A stretch of 64,000 nucleotides of DNA from a virus (Duplodnaviria > Caudoviricetes): IMG/VR virus record IMGVR_UViG_3300042870_001240. The stretch is one strand, 5' to 3'. The first letter of the stretch is position 1; every line of letters begins with the position of its first letter. The notes beneath the pieces are model-generated. The model was given only the letters and a program-made list of their open reading frames with translations, made no database searches and was not told where the DNA came from. Shown here piece after piece: positions 33,719 through 43,232 of the stretch. Made by a program: the position numbers and the translations under genes.

Positions 33719-35590
33719 TTACTTATTATTCACCTCTTCAAATTCGACATCGGAACCATTAAATTCCACATCACCTGTTTGGTCATTAACCTGGTCATAC
33801 AGGTCCTGTGAAATCTTTTGGAATTTTAGATTCACCTCATCAACTAATGATTTGGATAATTCTACGTCCTTTTTACTGTGAGCCTCTTTTAATTTTTCAA
33901 GAGTTGACGTTATCTCAGACTTTTGTTCTTCGGATATTTTACCTTCCAAATCAGTTAACGATTTTTCAACGTTAAAAATTGTGCTGTCTGCGATATTAAT
34001 TGCGTCAGCATCTTCTTTTGCTTTTTTATCAGACTCAGCATTAATTTCGGCCTCCTTTTTCATTTTTTCAATCTCCTCTTTAGATAATCCTGAAGAAGAT
34101 TCAATTCTAATTGATTGTTGTTTGTTTGTTGCTTTATCCATTGCCGAAACATTTATAATACCGTTAGTATCAATATCAAAAGTAACTTCAACTTGAGGAA
34201 CACCTCTCATCGCAGGTGGTAAGCCATCTAAATGGAATCTACCAATAGTTCGGTTATCTCTAACCATACTCCTTTCTCCCTGCAAAACGTGAATTTCAAC
34301 TGACGGTTGATTATCAACTGCCGTTGAGAATACCTGTGACTTCTTAGTTGGAATCGTGGTATTTGATTCAATTAGTTTTGTGAATACTCCACCCATTGTT
34401 TCAATACCCAAAGATAATGGTGTTACGTCTAATAACAATACATCTTTTACGTCTCCCGCTAATACACCACCTTGGATTGCCGCACCAAGAGCGACCACCT
34501 CATCAGGGTTAACTCCTTTTGAAGGTTCTTTACCAAAGAACTTTTTAACCGCATCTTGTATTGCCGGGATTCTTGTTGTTCCACCAACAAGGATAACCTC
34601 ATCAATATCAGAAACCTTAAGTTTTGCATTTTTCAATGCCGTTTTACAAGGTTCAATGGTTCTTTTAATTAAGTCGGCAGAAAGTTGTTCAAACTTTGCT
34701 CTCGTTAATGTTTTTACCAAGTGTTTTGGTCCAGTTGCATCGGCACTTAAATAAGGTAAGTTGATTTCTGTCTGAGGAGATGATGATAATTCAACCTTTG
34801 CTTTTTCAGCACCTTCTCTTAACCTTTGTAATGCCATAGCGTCTTTTGAGATATCTAAACCACCATTATCGTTCTTGAATTCCTCAACCAAGAAATCAAT
34901 AATGACTCTGTCAAAGTCATCACCACCTAAATGAGTATCCCCATCGGTAGATAATACCTCAAACACCCCATTACCAAGGTCTAATATAGATACGTCATGT
35001 GTACCACCTCCACAGTCAAATACAACGATTTTCATGTCTTTTGACATCTTATCAAGACCATACGCCAACGCCGCGGCGGTAGGTTCATTGATTATACGTC
35101 TAACAATTAATCCAGCAATTTCACCAGCTTCTTTAGTCGCTTGACGTTGTGCGTCGTTAAAATACGCAGGTACGGTAATAACCGCCTCAGTAACTTCAGT
35201 CCCCAAATAATCTTCAGCGGTTTGTTTCATCTTTTGAAGAATCATTGCCGAAATTTCTTGTGGTGAATACAATCTATCTTCTATAGATACTCTTGGTGTG
35301 TTCCCGTCACCTTTAACTAATTTATACGGAACTCTACCAACCTCACCTTTACTTTCGTCAAATGTTAAACCCATAAATCGTTTGATTGAGTAAACCGTTT
35401 TTTCAGGGTTTGTTACCGACTGTCTTTTTGCAGGGTCTCCGATTTTTCTTTCACCACCATTAATGAATCCAACAATTGAAGGGGTGGTTCTTTTTCCTTC
35501 ACTGTTTGTAATAACGACAGGTTCTCGTCCTTCCATGACCGTTACGCACGAATTTGTAGTTCCTAAATCTACTCCTATTATTTTTCCCAT
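33719..35590 (-). CDS. dnaK: Hsp70 chaperone DnaK
   Basis: [40 protein letters not shown]. Confidence 0.97.
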
Positions 35591-35743: not shown

Positions 35744-36781
35744 TTAATCAGGGGATAACGAATATAGTTTGATGAATCTTCTTTTCAGTTGTTTACCAGC
35801 ATTGTTGATTCTTGCTTGAAATCCTTTCATTAAACCCAAAATATGACTAGATTTTTCAATCCTCTTATTTGGTTGTAATTTCTGATATTTTAACTGTTTG
35901 TAGTAATCGGTTATAAACCAAATATAAAGATTTTTCATTATAGACACAATACTGTCGGGTTTTTGGTTTTCAATTTTTTCAATTAAGGTATCGAACATAA
36001 CATCAGCGTTAAATTTTTCCATAACTTCCGCTGCCATATAATATCGGTGTTTTTTAAATTCTTCAAAGGGCATTCTCAATCTAACCCCATACATTTCTTG
36101 CACCATTGCTCTCATTTCATAAGGTTCGGAAAAATATACCATTTGAAGAAATTCACTCCAAACTTCGAATATATCTCTTGGGATATTGTAGTTTTTACCA
36201 CCTGAATGACTTAACGCACTATTAATATTCCCTAACCCACTTAAAGACCTTTTATAAAATTCTAACATATGATTACACTCATGTGAAATACTATCGATTA
36301 AATCAGACATTAAATCATCAATATACTCTTCCGTAAAATCTTTTCTAATATAAACATCCAAATCAAATTTAGCATTTAATGTGTCGTCAAGTTCTGATAA
36401 TATGTGTTTTGGTAAATCTTTACTTGGTCTCTTTATAAAAGAATATTTCCCAACTTTAGACTCTATCTGTTCCGCACCTCCACCAGTACTAAATTTATAG
36501 GGCATCTGACTATTACTTTTGACATAGAGATTTAAGTCAATTCTAATCTCCTCAATTGGAAATTCAAGGTAACTCTCGAGGTCTTGTTTCCACACTCTCG
36601 ATAAATCTTTAAGTCCAATCACCAACTTTTGTTTACCAGGTTGCTTATGTTTTGTAAAGTCAATTACAATAGGTCTTGTTTTTTCATAAATTAAGTTAGC
36701 ATAATCCACGGAAGCTCTGGAAACCCCCATGTCTTCATTAATAAGTTTGGTATATTGGGATTCGTTTACAATAATTTTCAT
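35744..36781 (-). CDS. HExxH zincin-like protein with targeting-like N-terminus
   Basis: MKIIVNESQ; ISHECNH...PYEMRA. Confidence 0.6.
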   Translation of the reverse strand: MKIIVNESQYTKLINEDMGVSRASVDYANLIYEKTRPIVIDFTKHKQPGKQKLVIGLKDLSRVWKQDLESYLEFPIEEIRIDLNLYVKSNSQMPYKFSTGGGAEQIESKVGKYSFIKRPSKDLPKHILSELDDTLNAKFDLDVYIRKDFTEEYIDDLMSDLIDSISHECNHMLEFYKRSLSGLGNINSALSHSGGKNYNIPRDIFEVWSEFLQMVYFSEPYEMRAMVQEMYGVRLRMPFEEFKKHRYYMAAEVMEKFNADVMFDTLIEKIENQKPDSIVSIMKNLYIWFITDYYKQLKYQKLQPNKRIEKSSHILGLMKGFQARINNAGKQLKRRFIKLYSLSPD

Positions 36782-36851
36782 ATTAATAAATATACTAAAA
36801 AATTATTACAAGTGTTTATTTTTAAAACTTTATCACTATTTATTTAAAAGT

Positions 36852-36910
36852 ATGAAAACAAATAAAAATAATAAATCATAACGGAATCCTCCTTCGGGAG
36901 AATTTTTTTT
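36852..36910 (+). promoter_or_regulatory. Candidate Asn-responsive attenuator: leader peptide MKTNKNNKS* plus terminator
   Basis: uORF 36852-36881 with three AAT codons, then a CTCC-TTCG-GGAG hairpin and T8, about 40 nt before the asnA-like start. Confidence 0.65.
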
Positions 36911-36949
36911 GCCCATACGTAAACAATAAAAATAAATAAAAAAAAACAG

Positions 36950-37774
36950 ATGAAAAACACAAAAATTTACAACGAACTAGTTCAGAAATTAAGAACATTC
37001 TTTTTGGATAAAGAATTTATTGAGGTTCCAACTCAATCAAGATTATCAATTTTGGCCGCGTGTGAGAATCCACATTCTGTTAAAACATTTGAGTATGGTG
37101 GCGAAATTTGGCCCCTCCCTCAAACAGGTCAAATGTGGTTAGAACATGAGTTACTTAAAAACCCTGAATGGCCAGGAGTGTTTTGTATATCAACTTCTTA
37201 CCGAGAAGAGAAAAATCCAATTCCGGGTCGACACGAAACGATTTTTCCGATGTTCGAATTTGAATCTAAAGGAACAATGATTGATTTAAAAAATTTAGAA
37301 ACAGAGTTGTTAAATTACTTAGGATTTGACGAACCTAAGTCGGTTACTTACGAAGGTATGTGTTCAAGATATGGCACACAAATTTTAGAAGACGAACACG
37401 AGAGTAAAATGTGGAAAGAAATTGGTGAAGTAGTTTCATTAGAACATTTCCCATTAAGAACTAACCCATTTTGGAATATGAAACACGGGACTGATTCAAT
37501 TTTTAATAAGATTGACGTTATATTATTTGGTCAAGAAACCATTGGTAGCGCAGAGAGAAGTTGTGATGTTGATAAAATGAGGGAGATGTTTTATACGATT
37601 GAAAATGGTGGGTATTCTGCAAAGTTGTTTGAATTATTTGGTAAAGAAAGGGTTGAAAAAGAACTTGAGGAATTTCTTTCTTACGACTTTTTTCCTAGAT
37701 TTGGAGCCGGAATTGGTCTTACAAGATTATCAAGAGCATGGGAGTTAAATTCCGTCAATTTGGAAATTATTTAA
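36950..37774 (+). CDS. asnA: Asparagine synthetase A-like protein (class II aaRS catalytic domain only, AsnRS paralog)
   Basis: Motif 2 SYREE...GRH...FPMFEFE, ETIGSAER, motif 3 GAGIGLTR; no anticodon-binding domain. Confidence 0.75.
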   Translation: MKNTKIYNELVQKLRTFFLDKEFIEVPTQSRLSILAACENPHSVKTFEYGGEIWPLPQTGQMWLEHELLKNPEWPGVFCISTSYREEKNPIPGRHETIFPMFEFESKGTMIDLKNLETELLNYLGFDEPKSVTYEGMCSRYGTQILEDEHESKMWKEIGEVVSLEHFPLRTNPFWNMKHGTDSIFNKIDVILFGQETIGSAERSCDVDKMREMFYTIENGGYSAKLFELFGKERVEKELEEFLSYDFFPRFGAGIGLTRLSRAWELNSVNLEII

Positions 37775-37796
37775 ATTATTTATATCTTTATACTTT

Positions 37797-37979
37797 ATGG
37801 CAAAAAAAACAAATATAAAAGAAGTCGAACACAGGAAGTGGGAACGAGTTTATGAGGACGAAGATAGTATTTCCATATGGAGGTACGATAGTAAAAAAAG
37901 TTTGATAAATCCTTATGAGGTTGAAATCAAATATAAAAACGAAAAAAGGTCCTCGAGTAAACGAAAAAGCGAGGATTAA
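37797..37979 (+). CDS. Small hypothetical protein
   Basis: ORF of 60 aa. Confidence 0.55.
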   Translation: MAKKTNIKEVEHRKWERVYEDEDSISIWRYDSKKSLINPYEVEIKYKNEKRSSSKRKSED

Positions 37980-38004
37980 TAAATCTCTCTTTATATTTAT
38001 TGTT

Positions 38005-38430
38005 ATGAAATTAATTGGGTTACTTAAAGAAGAAACAAGTAAAAGTCGAATGATGAGACTCCTTAAAGATATGGGGTTTTCTAAGGAGGACGCTGAAGAT
38101 GAATTAGATGAAATAACCCATTATGTTAAAACCTTACCCGAAAAAATTAAATTATACAGAATTTTGGCGGTTGATAGTGAGGATAAAATTAATACTAAAG
38201 AGCTTGGGTGTCACTATTCTACAAGTAGAAAAGATTTGATTAATTCTCATACCTACGTCACAGGTTCAGGTGAAGAACATTATATCGTTACGGTAGTATC
38301 TCCTAAAAGTTTTATAGATGTTAATGAAACAATTGCAAACATAATTTTATATCCAAACGAACAAGAGATTACTTTAAAAAATAAAGGTAGAGGTGTTGAG
38401 GTGGTTTCAGTTAAAAAAATTAAACCTTAA
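38005..38430 (+). CDS. Hypothetical protein (start ATG 38005, MKLIGLLKEE)
   Basis: TATTTAT 5 nt upstream of the ATG. Confidence 0.6.
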   Translation: MKLIGLLKEETSKSRMMRLLKDMGFSKEDAEDELDEITHYVKTLPEKIKLYRILAVDSEDKINTKELGCHYSTSRKDLINSHTYVTGSGEEHYIVTVVSPKSFIDVNETIANIILYPNEQEITLKNKGRGVEVVSVKKIKP

Positions 38431-39107
38431 GAGTCCTTTTCTTTAGATGCGTATTTAACACCCATTATGGTTCCTATAATACTAAACGCATTTGTTAACA
38501 AAATACCAAACATATTTGACCATGTTGACCCAATGATTTGAGTATCTTTATTCATAAATAAAGAAATCATATACATAATTGTGGTAATTACACCAACAGA
38601 CATTATAACGCCTAAAGCGACCTTAACGATTGTTCCAATCAACTCGGTTTGACTTTTCTTTTGTAATAAATCTAAATCATTCATGGCGGCGTGTTTGGCG
38701 TTTTCTGCCTCAAGACGAGCCGATTCGGATTTACTCATAGCTATATGTAACTCTTCACTTATTCTTTGATTATCTTCTTTCCATGCGATTAATTCTCCGT
38801 TCTGAATTTCAATCTGTGTTTTGGTTTCCTCAACACTGGTTAAAGTTTCTTGTAACTCAACCATCATTCTTTGATTTTCTAAATTTAAATCGGATAACTC
38901 TTTATTTTGAGATTGGATTTGTTTTGTCATTTCCAATCTTCTTCGTCTAACTTCCTTGTCTTTAGAAACACAATAATCAATATACTCTTTAAATTCCTTA
39001 TCATCAGAGGTATCAATTACTTTGGCAATATTACCCTCAAGGGTAATATTTTTTGACTTATTTAAATCAATTAATTGTTGTTTACTATTTTTATCAAATA
39101 CTATCAT
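38427..39107 (-). CDS. Coiled-coil protein with two C-terminal TM helices, co-transcribed with the two-component genes
   Basis: Start overlaps the response-regulator stop; long heptad region; two hydrophobic helices. Confidence 0.65.
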   Translation of the reverse strand: MIVFDKNSKQQLIDLNKSKNITLEGNIAKVIDTSDDKEFKEYIDYCVSKDKEVRRRRLEMTKQIQSQNKELSDLNLENQRMMVELQETLTSVEETKTQIEIQNGELIAWKEDNQRISEELHIAMSKSESARLEAENAKHAAMNDLDLLQKKSQTELIGTIVKVALGVIMSVGVITTIMYMISLFMNKDTQIIGSTWSNMFGILLTNAFSIIGTIMGVKYASKEKDS

Positions 39108-39535
39108 TTATATACTTTAAATGGTGCGGTTCTGTTCTTGTAACTTTCGTAATCTTGTCTAAATTCCTCCAATCTTGGTTCTATATCATCAGATTTGATA
39201 ATCCAAAACTGAGCCCCAGCCTGAATGGCTTTAGCTTGTTCTTCAGGTTCATTACTTGAAGATATAATACCGATAACTACGTTATTACCGTATTCAAAGT
39301 TAACCTTACGGATAAGTTCAATACCGTCAAAGGACGAACCGATTATATTTAAATCCACAAACACGCATTCAGGTTTACCGTTTGGGTTCTTTTGCCAATC
39401 GGAAAATAATTTAGCCGCCTCGTCAGAGCTATTTAAACTTTTTAACGACAAAGTAATGTCTAATAAGGAACAACTGTCCTCAAAAACCAAATGGAATAAG
39501 TCCTCGTCATCCACTAACAAAATTGAATCAATCAT
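39104..39535 (-). CDS. Single-domain response regulator (receiver only)
   Basis: LLVDDED, VFVDLN (phospho-Asp), ISSS, IIKS. Confidence 0.88.
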   Translation of the reverse strand: MIDSILLVDDEDLFHLVFEDSCSLLDITLSLKSLNSSDEAAKLFSDWQKNPNGKPECVFVDLNIIGSSFDGIELIRKVNFEYGNNVVIGIISSSNEPEEQAKAIQAGAQFWIIKSDDIEPRLEEFRQDYESYKNRTAPFKVYK

Positions 39536-39548
39536 ATTTTTTCTTTTT

Positions 39549-41480
39549 TTATTTTATTTTTATTTTCATTTTAGTACCAATTTCATTCTTCTCACAAGTA
39601 ATCTTAAACTTATGTTCTTCCAAGATTGCGACACAAATATTTAACCCTAATCCAGTCCCAGATTCTTTTTGTCCTTCTTTTCTTGTATAAGGTTTGGATA
39701 AATAATTAAAATCGTCTTGAGTAATACCTCTACCGTTATCTTGTATGTAAATTGAATCCTCATCACCATATACCTTAACAAACTTTGTTTCGGAGTCGTT
39801 ATATTTTAAACCATTCCTAATTAGATTATCAACTGCGGTACAGAACAACGGTTCATTAAGTTCAATGGTTGGTAAATTATCGTCTAATATCACCTGACTT
39901 ATATAAGCCGTTGATGATAAATAATCTGCAAGAATATTTTTTACATTACATTCGGTCTTGTTTAATACCACATCTTTCTTAACTAGATTGGTAAACTCAT
40001 AAACCCCTTTATAAACTTTTTGTGAGTGTTTAAGACCTTCCTTAATCATTTTAAGTGGTGCCTCAATTTTAAGGTTAGTAATATCTTCTTGGGATAATCT
40101 CCTTTCTAATGAATTAACCCCTCTTGGTATATAAGTATTAATCCCTGAGTGCATATCATGTCTTAATATTTTAGCCGCGTGTTCTAAGTAGGTATTTTTC
40201 TTTTCAATTTCCTTCTTTTGTTCATAAGAAGTAGTAATGTCTGTAGCGATTTTCATAACACGATAAATCTTACCATCAGTACCAATAATAGGATTGTAAG
40301 TCGCCTGTAGATATACTAAAGACCCGTCTTTTTTGACTCTAACAATTTCACCTGAAAATAACTCACCATTATTTAATTTTTCCCAAAAAAGAGAATAGTC
40401 ATCGCTTTTCGAATATTCATCGTCAATAAAAATTCTGTGGTGTTTTCCGACAACCTCATCTTGTGACGAATATCCCATAGTACCTAAAAACAAGTCATTC
40501 GCAAAAATAATGTTACCTTCTAAATCAAATTCAATAACGGCATTAGATTTGTTTATCGCATTCATTCTATTCCGAATCTCCATCTCTTTTTTCTTAAGTT
40601 CCGTAACGTCTTGTCTAATTGATGAAAACCCGTCTAACTTACCATTCTTATCGAATTTTGCTTTGATGAATGTGTCAACGTAATATAATTCTCCTGATTT
40701 TCCTTTATTGGTAACAACGTCATTCCATATTTCACCATTCATTACCGTCTTATACATCTTACCCCAATAACCGTCAGGTTGTAATCCCGAATTAACAATA
40801 ATATGGTCCTTGCCTTTTACTTCGTCTAAAGACCATCCAGAAACTTCCTCAAATTTTTTATTAACGTAGGTTATTTTACCGTATTTATCAGCAACCGAAA
40901 CAATTGCGGCACTATTTAAAAAATTTTCAGTTTCTTTATTTATTCTCAATAAATCATTTCCTTCTTTAACTGAATAAGTAAAACTATAAAGAGATGATAA
41001 TAGTTGTGCAAAATCAACCTCAGAACTATCCCACTCTCTAAGTGTTAGTGACTCAATACAAATTACCCCAATGGTTTCCCCTTTATAAATAATAGGAACA
41101 TCTAACATAGATTTTACCCCAAGAGGTTTTAAATACGTTTCGGTAAAACAAGAAGTCGCTTGGTGTATTTCGGCATCATTTGCAATGATAATTGGGTTTT
41201 CTAATAACGCTAAGAAATAGGATTGGAAATCTTTTTTATAAAGTGTTATGTCTTGATACCAACTGTTTTCAGATTTAATATGTAATTGTTCACATATAAT
41301 TTCAGACTTATCTTCATTGTATAACCATATTGAACACCTATCGGCATTTATTGATTCCGTAACTTCTTTAGTTAATACTTTAGCACCTTCAGTTGTATTA
41401 CCTTCATAAAATAAAGGATTGTGTGATTGGGAGATAAGTACCTTATTTAATTTTTTAGTATAGTCAAGATGTTTTATCAT
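39549..41480 (-). CDS. Cytoplasmic sensor histidine kinase: GAF-PAS-PAS-HisKA-HATPase
   Basis: GAF (ADRCSIWL...LDVPI...GVICIE), two PAS/PAC domains, H-box ILRHDMH, N-box DNLIRNGLKY, QDNGRGI, GTGLGL; no TM helix. Confidence 0.9.
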   Translation of the reverse strand: MIKHLDYTKKLNKVLISQSHNPLFYEGNTTEGAKVLTKEVTESINADRCSIWLYNEDKSEIICEQLHIKSENSWYQDITLYKKDFQSYFLALLENPIIIANDAEIHQATSCFTETYLKPLGVKSMLDVPIIYKGETIGVICIESLTLREWDSSEVDFAQLLSSLYSFTYSVKEGNDLLRINKETENFLNSAAIVSVADKYGKITYVNKKFEEVSGWSLDEVKGKDHIIVNSGLQPDGYWGKMYKTVMNGEIWNDVVTNKGKSGELYYVDTFIKAKFDKNGKLDGFSSIRQDVTELKKKEMEIRNRMNAINKSNAVIEFDLEGNIIFANDLFLGTMGYSSQDEVVGKHHRIFIDDEYSKSDDYSLFWEKLNNGELFSGEIVRVKKDGSLVYLQATYNPIIGTDGKIYRVMKIATDITTSYEQKKEIEKKNTYLEHAAKILRHDMHSGINTYIPRGVNSLERRLSQEDITNLKIEAPLKMIKEGLKHSQKVYKGVYEFTNLVKKDVVLNKTECNVKNILADYLSSTAYISQVILDDNLPTIELNEPLFCTAVDNLIRNGLKYNDSETKFVKVYGDEDSIYIQDNGRGITQDDFNYLSKPYTRKEGQKESGTGLGLNICVAILEEHKFKITCEKNEIGTKMKIKIK

Positions 41481-43091: not shown

Positions 43092-43232
43092 TGTAGTTTG
43101 TTTTTATTGTACAAAATATACAATCGTTAGTATTATTACGAACCATACGATTAACAATAATAAGTCAATATTTTCTTTTAATTTTTTCATCTTATAAATA
43201 TAGTATTTTTTTTTGATTAATAAAAAAGTTCA

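Follow-up and report, generated by a model that had tools for sequence, protein, structure and literature searches.

What does an asparagine-rich open reading frame (ORF) of a few codons do when it runs straight into an intrinsic terminator, and why does a phage keep the pair in front of an enzyme gene? The question is raised by a 64,000-nucleotide (nt) stretch of DNA, henceforth the window, from a virus of the Caudoviricetes (IMG/VR record IMGVR_UViG_3300042870_001240). Its plus strand carries an upstream ORF (uORF) encoding MKTNKNNKS, a hairpin with a cUUCGg tetraloop, eight T residues and then a gene for a 274-residue protein (Table 1), parts that an original prediction, made from the letters alone, had read correctly and interpreted as a phage-encoded attenuator through which Asn starvation turns on an asparagine synthetase. 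Comparison with related phages supports one part of that proposal, namely that the Asn-codon uORF and the terminator together make up a conserved, phage-borne regulatory leader of the enzyme gene. The identity given to the enzyme is not supported, and the geometry of the leader predicts a response of the opposite sign.

The codons of the uORF are ATG AAA ACA AAT AAA AAT AAT AAA TCA TAA, with Asn specified at 36861-36863 and 36867-36872. At 37.5% Asn the peptide is an outlier in the window, where only 0.18% of 553 random short ORFs reach 30%. Relatives of the locus were sampled from 80 phage loci at 73-83% protein identity, with closer ones at 89-90% and one at 68%, and 63 non-identical upstream regions were compared; a search of IMG/VR with two distant family members gave no matches. 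The leader peptides comprise 40 distinct uORFs in 29 unrelated-looking families, for example MKNNKLNNK, MNTRTKSNNNNHSES, MMNNNRNLNINYKKS, MHRKKQNKNNIIM and MENNITNNNYLLNKK. Asn accounts for 130 of their 539 codons (24%), against 57.6±7.0 in nucleotide shuffles (z=10.4), and it is the only residue enriched, every other lying within z=±2.7. The enrichment is specific to the reading frame: in a set of 37 uORFs, AAY makes up 119 of 508 codons in frame, the two alternative frames hold 32 and 23, shuffles give 53±7, and NN dipeptides occur 36 times against 5.3±2.4 expected. Asn exceeds the composition-based expectation in 27 of the 29 peptide families (Wilcoxon p=2e-6). In the nearest relatives, at 89-90% protein identity, the leaders read MKTNNNNI and MKTNNNNIY, each followed by a stop codon, and the Asn run in close relatives is held or strengthened as the flanking codons vary.

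These figures dispose of three simple explanations. A chance uORF in AT-rich DNA, the caveat attached to the original prediction, is excluded by the relatives and by the statistics of Asn enrichment; conservation of Asn codons in homologous leaders had been named there among the checks to make. AAC supplies 34% of Asn codons in the leaders and 30% in the window genes, and this normal share places the signal at the codon level, without an AATAAT DNA motif; together with the frame specificity it rules out AATAAT as a -10-like pause motif. Sensing of the queuosine codons (Asn, Tyr, His and Asp) is ruled out as well, since Asn alone is enriched.

The layout around the uORF is equally constant. A hairpin followed by a T-run lies at most 80 nt upstream of the gene in 51 of the 63 regions, and 45 of these 51 terminator-bearing leaders hold a short uORF of 8-27 codons, whose stop falls anywhere from 18 nt inside the stem to 11 nt before it. 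Six have an ordinary long upstream gene instead, with its stop 5-13 nt ahead of the hairpin, and in two loci (L010 and L019) an ORF reads through the hairpin. The stems, of 7-10 base pairs (bp) in 42-51 unique relatives, have many unrelated sequences in the same place with the pairing kept. An alignment of the hairpins (MAFFT/RNAalifold) showed compensatory changes in all six predicted pairs, with a weak energy term; unequal loop lengths upset this alignment, and we relied on the stems of the individual loci instead. The T-run is uninterrupted and 7, 8 or 9 nt long in 42 of 42 unique leaders, and GCCC stands behind it in 22 of the 42 despite differing hairpin sequences. Pairing of this GCCC with the 3' arm of the hairpin was considered and rejected, as there is no covariation and GCCC is kept beside stems that lack GGG.

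In the window, the end of the uORF stop codon is 2 nt from the extended stem and 7 nt from the core; the original prediction had recognized this closeness, although its figure of 5-6 nt fits neither. Beyond the core, a C.A mismatch (36888/36901) is followed by three A-U pairs and one G.U pair, which take the stem to 36884-36905. The upstream gene (35744-36781) is on the opposite strand, and hence no plus-strand gene needs the hairpin as its terminator.

We next consider where transcription of the leader would begin. TATTTAT lies within 45 nt upstream of 24 of the 77 window ORFs of at least 100 residues, 4-7 nt before the ATG in 13 of them, and a Shine-Dalgarno-like 4-mer precedes only 3 of the 77. 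By its distribution TATTTAT is a general promoter-like box of the window phage, and its position at the uORF implies a 5' leader of a few nucleotides at most. Among the 45 related leaders with a short uORF, 42 have a TATTTAT-like box at most 30 nt from the uORF ATG, mostly 5-6 nt upstream of it, and a TTGAC-type element often lies about 17 nt further upstream of the box. The uORF is thus positioned as the opening gene of a phage transcript with almost no leader would be. By contrast, none of the 51 unique spacers between terminator and gene (16-55 nt long, 52% A) contains a TATTTAT-like box, and with a promoter-free spacer the enzyme gene should be reachable only by read-through from the uORF promoter.

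How could translation of the uORF govern that read-through? Between the ATG and the hairpin loop the RNA is unstructured: its median folding energy of -1.8 kcal/mol does not improve on shuffles (mean z=+0.4), whereas the terminators reach a median of -12.3 kcal/mol. We found neither an antiterminator (2:3) nor a pause (1:2) helix in any family, and no helix that consistently engages the 5' arm. In the absence of an antiterminator, translation can act solely by ribosome occlusion of the terminator, the mechanism that the original prediction had thought likelier for want of a clear antiterminator. The fold of the whole window leader is no better than shuffles (z=-0.6) and uninformative, as only the hairpin is structured. 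A simple terminator scan did not pick up the window hairpin, owing to its mismatch, and an Rfam scan of 36000-38500 with E up to 10 returned chance-level matches only and no leader family.

By toeprint geometry, the front edge of a ribosome is some 11-12 nt past the first base of the A site. When the stop codon occupies that site, the footprint enters the 5' arm by 4-12 nt in essentially all leaders. In about 80% of 37 distinct leaders, 13-36 nt separate the last Asn codon from the stem core, and a footprint with this codon in the A site ends short of the core in about 80% of leaders. Because the stop abuts the hairpin and the Asn codons lie further upstream, starvation should close the switch, whereas the original prediction had Asn starvation open it.

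We hold, with about as much confidence as doubt, that the locus is a single-hairpin, translation-coupled transcription attenuator in which fast Asn decoding leads to read-through and Asn shortage to termination. The phage promoter box would start a near-leaderless RNA whose first nine codons form the Asn-rich leader ORF, and this ORF would end at the foot of the intrinsic terminator (hairpin and U8). A ribosome that has reached the stop codon would cover the hairpin's 5' arm with RNA polymerase still at the U-tract, allowing read-through; a ribosome slowed on the upstream Asn codons would mostly fail to cover the 5' arm, and transcription would terminate. Plentiful charged tRNA-Asn should then favor read-through, and Asn shortage or poor translation should favor termination. 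Translation of the uORF and termination at the hairpin, like the sign of the response, are what we infer from this arrangement.

The closest known relatives of such a design are the pyrBI (pyrL) and rph-pyrE leaders of E. coli and Salmonella, which likewise have a single intrinsic terminator and no antiterminator, need a ribosome up to or into the hairpin for read-through, and depend decisively on the distance from stop to hairpin (PMC2784333, PMC5021804). Attenuation was relieved when the rph stop codon was brought next to the pyrE attenuator loop (PMC2784333), and termination rose when a ribosome stalled upstream of the pyrL terminator (PMC5021804). In some of the phage loci a full-length gene stands where rph would be, and the ORFs of L010 and L019 cross the hairpin as pyrL does. 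The phage leader differs in being phage-encoded and near-leaderless, in its short ORF of 8-27 codons with a run of Asn codons, and in having no U-rich pause region besides the terminator U7-9.

Several points weigh against this attenuator model. The hairpin of the window has lost strength, with -5.7 kcal/mol compared with the family median of -12.3; its C.A mismatch arose by a G-to-A change, the stem is a perfect 10 bp in relatives at 89-90% protein identity, and this copy may therefore be leaky. On a leaderless RNA of about 60 nt, a newly started ribosome and RNA polymerase would be in a tight race, and no pause site is evident in the leader. In a minority of leaders (L007, L013, L063 and L067, less so L008 and L058) the last Asn codons lie in or at the foot of the hairpin, and there the stalled ribosome itself would hide the terminator. 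The one metatranscriptome run that contains any of the stretch has a small share of it, and its contigs miss 36806-37009, the leader included. Lastly, the predicted sign would be metabolically backwards if the enzyme supplied Asn. For an enzyme that uses Asn, or drains Asp and Asn into pyrimidines, a switch that opens at plentiful charged tRNA-Asn makes sense.

The same geometry bears on the reading with the classical sign, in which a ribosome stalled on the Asn codons blocks the terminator, whether sterically at the foot of the hairpin or through some feature that the sequence does not show, and starvation turns on an Asn-supplying enzyme. A leader ORF with a run of cognate codons is normally a sign that starvation induces expression, as in the textbook cases trpL, hisL and pheL, and the phage leaders share with these and with pheM-pheST a short ORF in which the codons of one amino acid cluster, ahead of an intrinsic terminator; in pheM-pheST the regulated gene, as here, belongs to the aminoacyl-tRNA synthetase superfamily. 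The last Asn codon is at most 12 nt from the stem in about 7-11 of the 37 leaders, the pocket signature of the enzyme (Q-T-G-Q-M-W-L-E) follows that of AsnRS, and an AsnRS-like core of archaea is an Asn synthetase (PDB 3p8t/3reu). Set against this, every family lacks the antiterminator and pause helices (1:2 or 2:3) of the classical attenuators, in most leaders the stalled ribosome stops short of the stem core, and the assignment of the enzyme as AsnA fails its tests, as detailed below. With the stop abutting the terminator, hungry codons should act in the opposite sense, and no Rfam leader family matches the phage leader. We regard the classical sign as unlikely, though a serious contender.

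The sign of the response leads to the question of what the enzyme does. The 274-residue protein matches Pfam tRNA-synt_2 (E=6e-11) and phrog_29758, a family of unknown function (E=5e-100). A profile of its family matches asparaginyl-tRNA synthetase (AsnRS, E=5e-14), archaeal-type aspartyl-tRNA synthetase (AspRS, 1e-12), archaeal AsnA (4.5e-6) and EpmA (1.6e-5). Its AlphaFold model (pLDDT 95.9) is most similar to AsnRS and AspRS cores (TM-score 0.72-0.78), with archaeal AsnA at 0.72/0.70. Motif 2 (S-Y-R-x-E ... G-R-H) and motif 3 (G-x-G-x-G-x-x-R) of the class IIb fold are intact, and the pocket signature resembles the Q-S-S-Q-L-Y-L-E of AsnRS and not the Q-S-P-Q-L-Y-K-Q of AspRS. The alignment is confined to the catalytic domain of AsnRS (residues ~140-380), the N-terminal OB-fold anticodon-binding domain being absent.

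None of the named enzyme families is supported by its model. AsnRS fails on its score with TIGR00457 (asnS; 19.9 bits, cut-off 342.6) and on the missing anticodon-binding domain, and the NCBIfam AspRS model likewise stays far below its cut-off. EpmA fails on TIGR00462 (genX; 17.2 bits, cut-off 286.9) and on an Asp/Asn-type ...G-S-A-E-R... segment that aligns with G-G-S-M-R of AsnRS. Asparagine synthetase A, which the original prediction had in mind in calling the gene asnA-like, scores 15.6 bits with NCBIfam PRK06462 against a cut-off of 322, and there is no match to Pfam AsnA. Archaeal AsnA (AS-AR; PDB 3p8t, 3reu, 3rl6) is also a stand-alone class IIb core of ~280-290 residues without an anticodon-binding domain, but it is no closer to the phage enzyme than AsnRS or AspRS, and it differs in phyletic and operon context, the family of the enzyme having pyrD/E/F neighbors and occurring in genomes without AsnRS. 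Judged by sequence and predicted structure, the gene product is an uncharacterized stand-alone AsnRS/AspRS-like class IIb catalytic core and a putative adenylate-forming enzyme; it is probably not an asparagine synthetase. It is possibly an AsnRS-like ATP-dependent ligase that forms a ring from Asn or Asp to feed pyrimidine synthesis, Asn synthesis being less likely.

The family is large, with more than 8000 clusters at 90% identity and 428 at 50% identity (E<=1e-10). Its database names ('transposase', 'aspartyl/asparaginyl-tRNA synthetase') are uninformative; 'transposase', the NCBI name of two members (P0063 and P0274), looks like a propagated misannotation.

Cellular organisms with homologues (56-68% identity) include Saccharibacteria and other bacteria of the candidate phyla radiation (CPR), DPANN archaea, Dependentiae, Chlamydiae and Coxiellaceae-like gammaproteobacteria. 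Within flanks of only 1.5 kb, about 23 of 80 cellular loci have neighbors of the pyrD/pyrE/pyrF type: a phosphoribosyltransferase in 17, an orotidine monophosphate (OMP) decarboxylase in 14 and a dihydroorotate dehydrogenase or similar protein in 10. The loci with the aminoacyl-tRNA synthetase-like gene in such operons include L101, L140, L142, L153, L139 and L168, and one genome has the contiguous order gene, phosphoribosyltransferase, OMP decarboxylase, pyrD.

Genomes with the gene beside pyr-type neighbors had no aspartate carbamoyltransferase (pyrB) over the cut-off (0 of 15) and no dihydroorotase (pyrC) over the cut-off (0 of 10), absences that are provisional as many carrier genomes are metagenome-assembled; carbamoyl-phosphate synthetase passed its cut-off in one of five and pyrD was present in all five. 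PyrB was found in 14 of 14 control genomes and in 26 of 31 pyrF-positive Chlamydiae without the gene (Fisher's exact p=3e-8); only 4 of 121 Chlamydiae genomes carry the gene, too few for statistics alone. This context speaks for a step ahead of dihydroorotate dehydrogenase rather than for the supply of Asn, and suggests the gene as a candidate for the missing step of pyrimidine biosynthesis in genomes without pyrB and pyrC. The link is not universal, with OMP decarboxylase in only 9 of 25 CPR/DPANN carriers. In phages, no pyr genes flank the gene, and tblastn of the neighboring phosphoribosyltransferase against phage records gave no link to gene-carrying phages.

Nor do the carriers look like genomes that would need AsnA. 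AsnA-bearing genomes are reported to use AsnRS (PMC2330236). AsnRS exceeds its cut-off in only 6 of 25 CPR/DPANN carriers (19 of 25 are without it), which argues against a role in making free Asn there, and AsnB is present in 5 of 10 other carrier genomes. Incomplete metagenome-assembled genomes make these absences provisional too.

The pyrimidine connection opens two further readings of the leader. The first keeps the Asn signal and adds a second input: a pyr-type attenuator would open when charged tRNA-Asn is plentiful and when low uridine triphosphate (UTP) slows the polymerase on the U-tract, and the AsnRS-derived enzyme would provide a route to the pyrimidine ring without PyrB and PyrC. 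Candidate reactions are Asn + CO2 + ATP to dihydroorotate, in the manner of dethiobiotin synthetase, or an ATP-driven cyclization of carbamoyl-aspartate in the manner of AsnA. Were this true, the phages would turn host Asn and Asp into pyrimidines for their AT-rich DNA; we consider the combined proposal rather improbable.

More doubtful still is an attenuator that senses UTP as pyrBI and rph-pyrE do, with low UTP slowing the polymerase on the U-tract so that the ribosome catches up, and with Asn codons that are secondary or incidental. It would account for the single hairpin with a stop codon at its foot, the six loci with a full-length gene in the place of rph, the T-run that is always 7-9 nt and uninterrupted, and the cellular homologues in pyrD/pyrE/pyrF operons, but it leaves the strong, frame-specific, Asn-only enrichment unexplained, the leader bodies are A-rich and not U-rich (the terminator T7-9 being the only U-rich element), and the enzyme's link to pyrimidines is indirect and not universal.

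It is just as doubtful that no amino acid is sensed at all and that the element is a constitutive leaky terminator or an RNA-stabilizing element, its uORF being the first ORF of a short transcript or part of a small RNA: the terminator and T8-GCC(C) do occur where a normal gene lies upstream (L024 and L036), similar CPR elements have upstream ORFs that are not Asn-rich and the overall fold of the window leader is no better than shuffles, but this reading would leave unaccounted for the narrow spacing of stop and hairpin and an Asn enrichment that is frame-specific and recurs in 29 independent peptide families.

Leader peptides that sense amino acids are a textbook bacterial device. In the literature searched, we came across no account of a leader-peptide attenuator for Asn, of one that serves a phage metabolic gene, or of any amino-acid attenuator encoded by a phage. 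What is new in the single-hairpin attenuator proposed here is the combination of a lone hairpin, a near-leaderless RNA, phage origin and, probably, an inverted sign. Giant freshwater phages, abundant and forming a large clade, have conserved the leader, and its minimal design would offer a clean natural system for asking how transcription-translation coupling alone reads tRNA charging. The finding also flags an abundant, uncharacterized family of aminoacyl-tRNA synthetase-like proteins in phages, CPR, DPANN, Chlamydiae and Legionellales-like bacteria.

Table 1. Parts of the leader and enzyme gene, by position in the window.
Feature	Position	Strand	Remarks
Promoter-like box TATTTAT	36837..36843	+	8 nt upstream of the uORF ATG
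Leader ORF MKTNKNNKS, then stop	36852..36881	+	read from sequence
Terminator hairpin, cUUCGg tetraloop	36884..36905	+	core C36889-G36900 (CUCC-UUCG-GGAG)
Uninterrupted T8 (terminator U-tract)	36903..36910	+	GCCC next
Conserved GCCCATACGT block right behind the T-run	36911..36920	+	occurs once in the window
A-rich unstructured spacer, without promoter box	36921..36949	+	
274-residue enzyme gene	36950..37774	+	class IIb aminoacyl-tRNA synthetase catalytic core

Several observations concern leaders of a different kind. Eight of the phage loci (L038, L061, L065, L066, L069, L072, L078 and L080) have no Asn leader; within the 60 nt upstream of the gene they share a GC-rich hairpin, then C-A10-TTTCT and the ATG, which may be an alternative control or translation element of the same gene. 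In CPR genomes, a hairpin with T7-8 and GCC(C) stands ahead of the gene in L110, L131, L143, L146, L156, L166, L169 and L172. The GCC often opens a second hairpin there, and the upstream ORFs are not Asn-rich, some ending in Ile-Ile-Ile-Ser; T8-GCC thus recurs across phages and CPR. In Coxiellaceae-like and other gammaproteobacteria (L105, L109, L118, L124, L125, L130, L142, L150, L153 and L163), a conserved palindrome, AAGTTTGCGCGCAAA, lies ~60-110 nt upstream of the homologous gene, often in the order gene-pyrE-pyrF, and looks like a putative operator for a dimeric repressor. On the minus strand of the window, a 26-codon ORF (36876-36953) crosses the hairpin and is accompanied by a TATTTAT at 36938-36932; both are probably chance occurrences, as the closest relatives do not keep the box.

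The window itself is phage DNA, with PHROG families of T4-type RNA ligase and thymidylate synthase, and the enzyme gene has relatives on IMG/VR contigs as long as 465 kb, in the cyanophages P-SSM2, P-SSM5 and P-SSM7 and in published huge-phage records. Close to the locus (33719-35590 and 39104-41480, both minus strand) the phage encodes a full-length DnaK/Hsp70 and, adjoining the locus, a histidine kinase of GAF-PAS-PAS architecture together with a response regulator that consists of a receiver only. A 336-residue minus-strand ORF (11121-12131) matches phrog_1211, '2-aminooxy adenylosuccinate synthetase' (PurA/PurZ-like; E=2e-69), and may be tied to modified-base or purine metabolism of the phage. 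An intergenic 28-codon ORF on the same strand (43105-43190), which begins 3 nt past a TATTTAT box and encodes the hydrophobic peptide MKKLKENIDLLLLIVWFVIILTIVYFVQ, probably specifies a small membrane protein.

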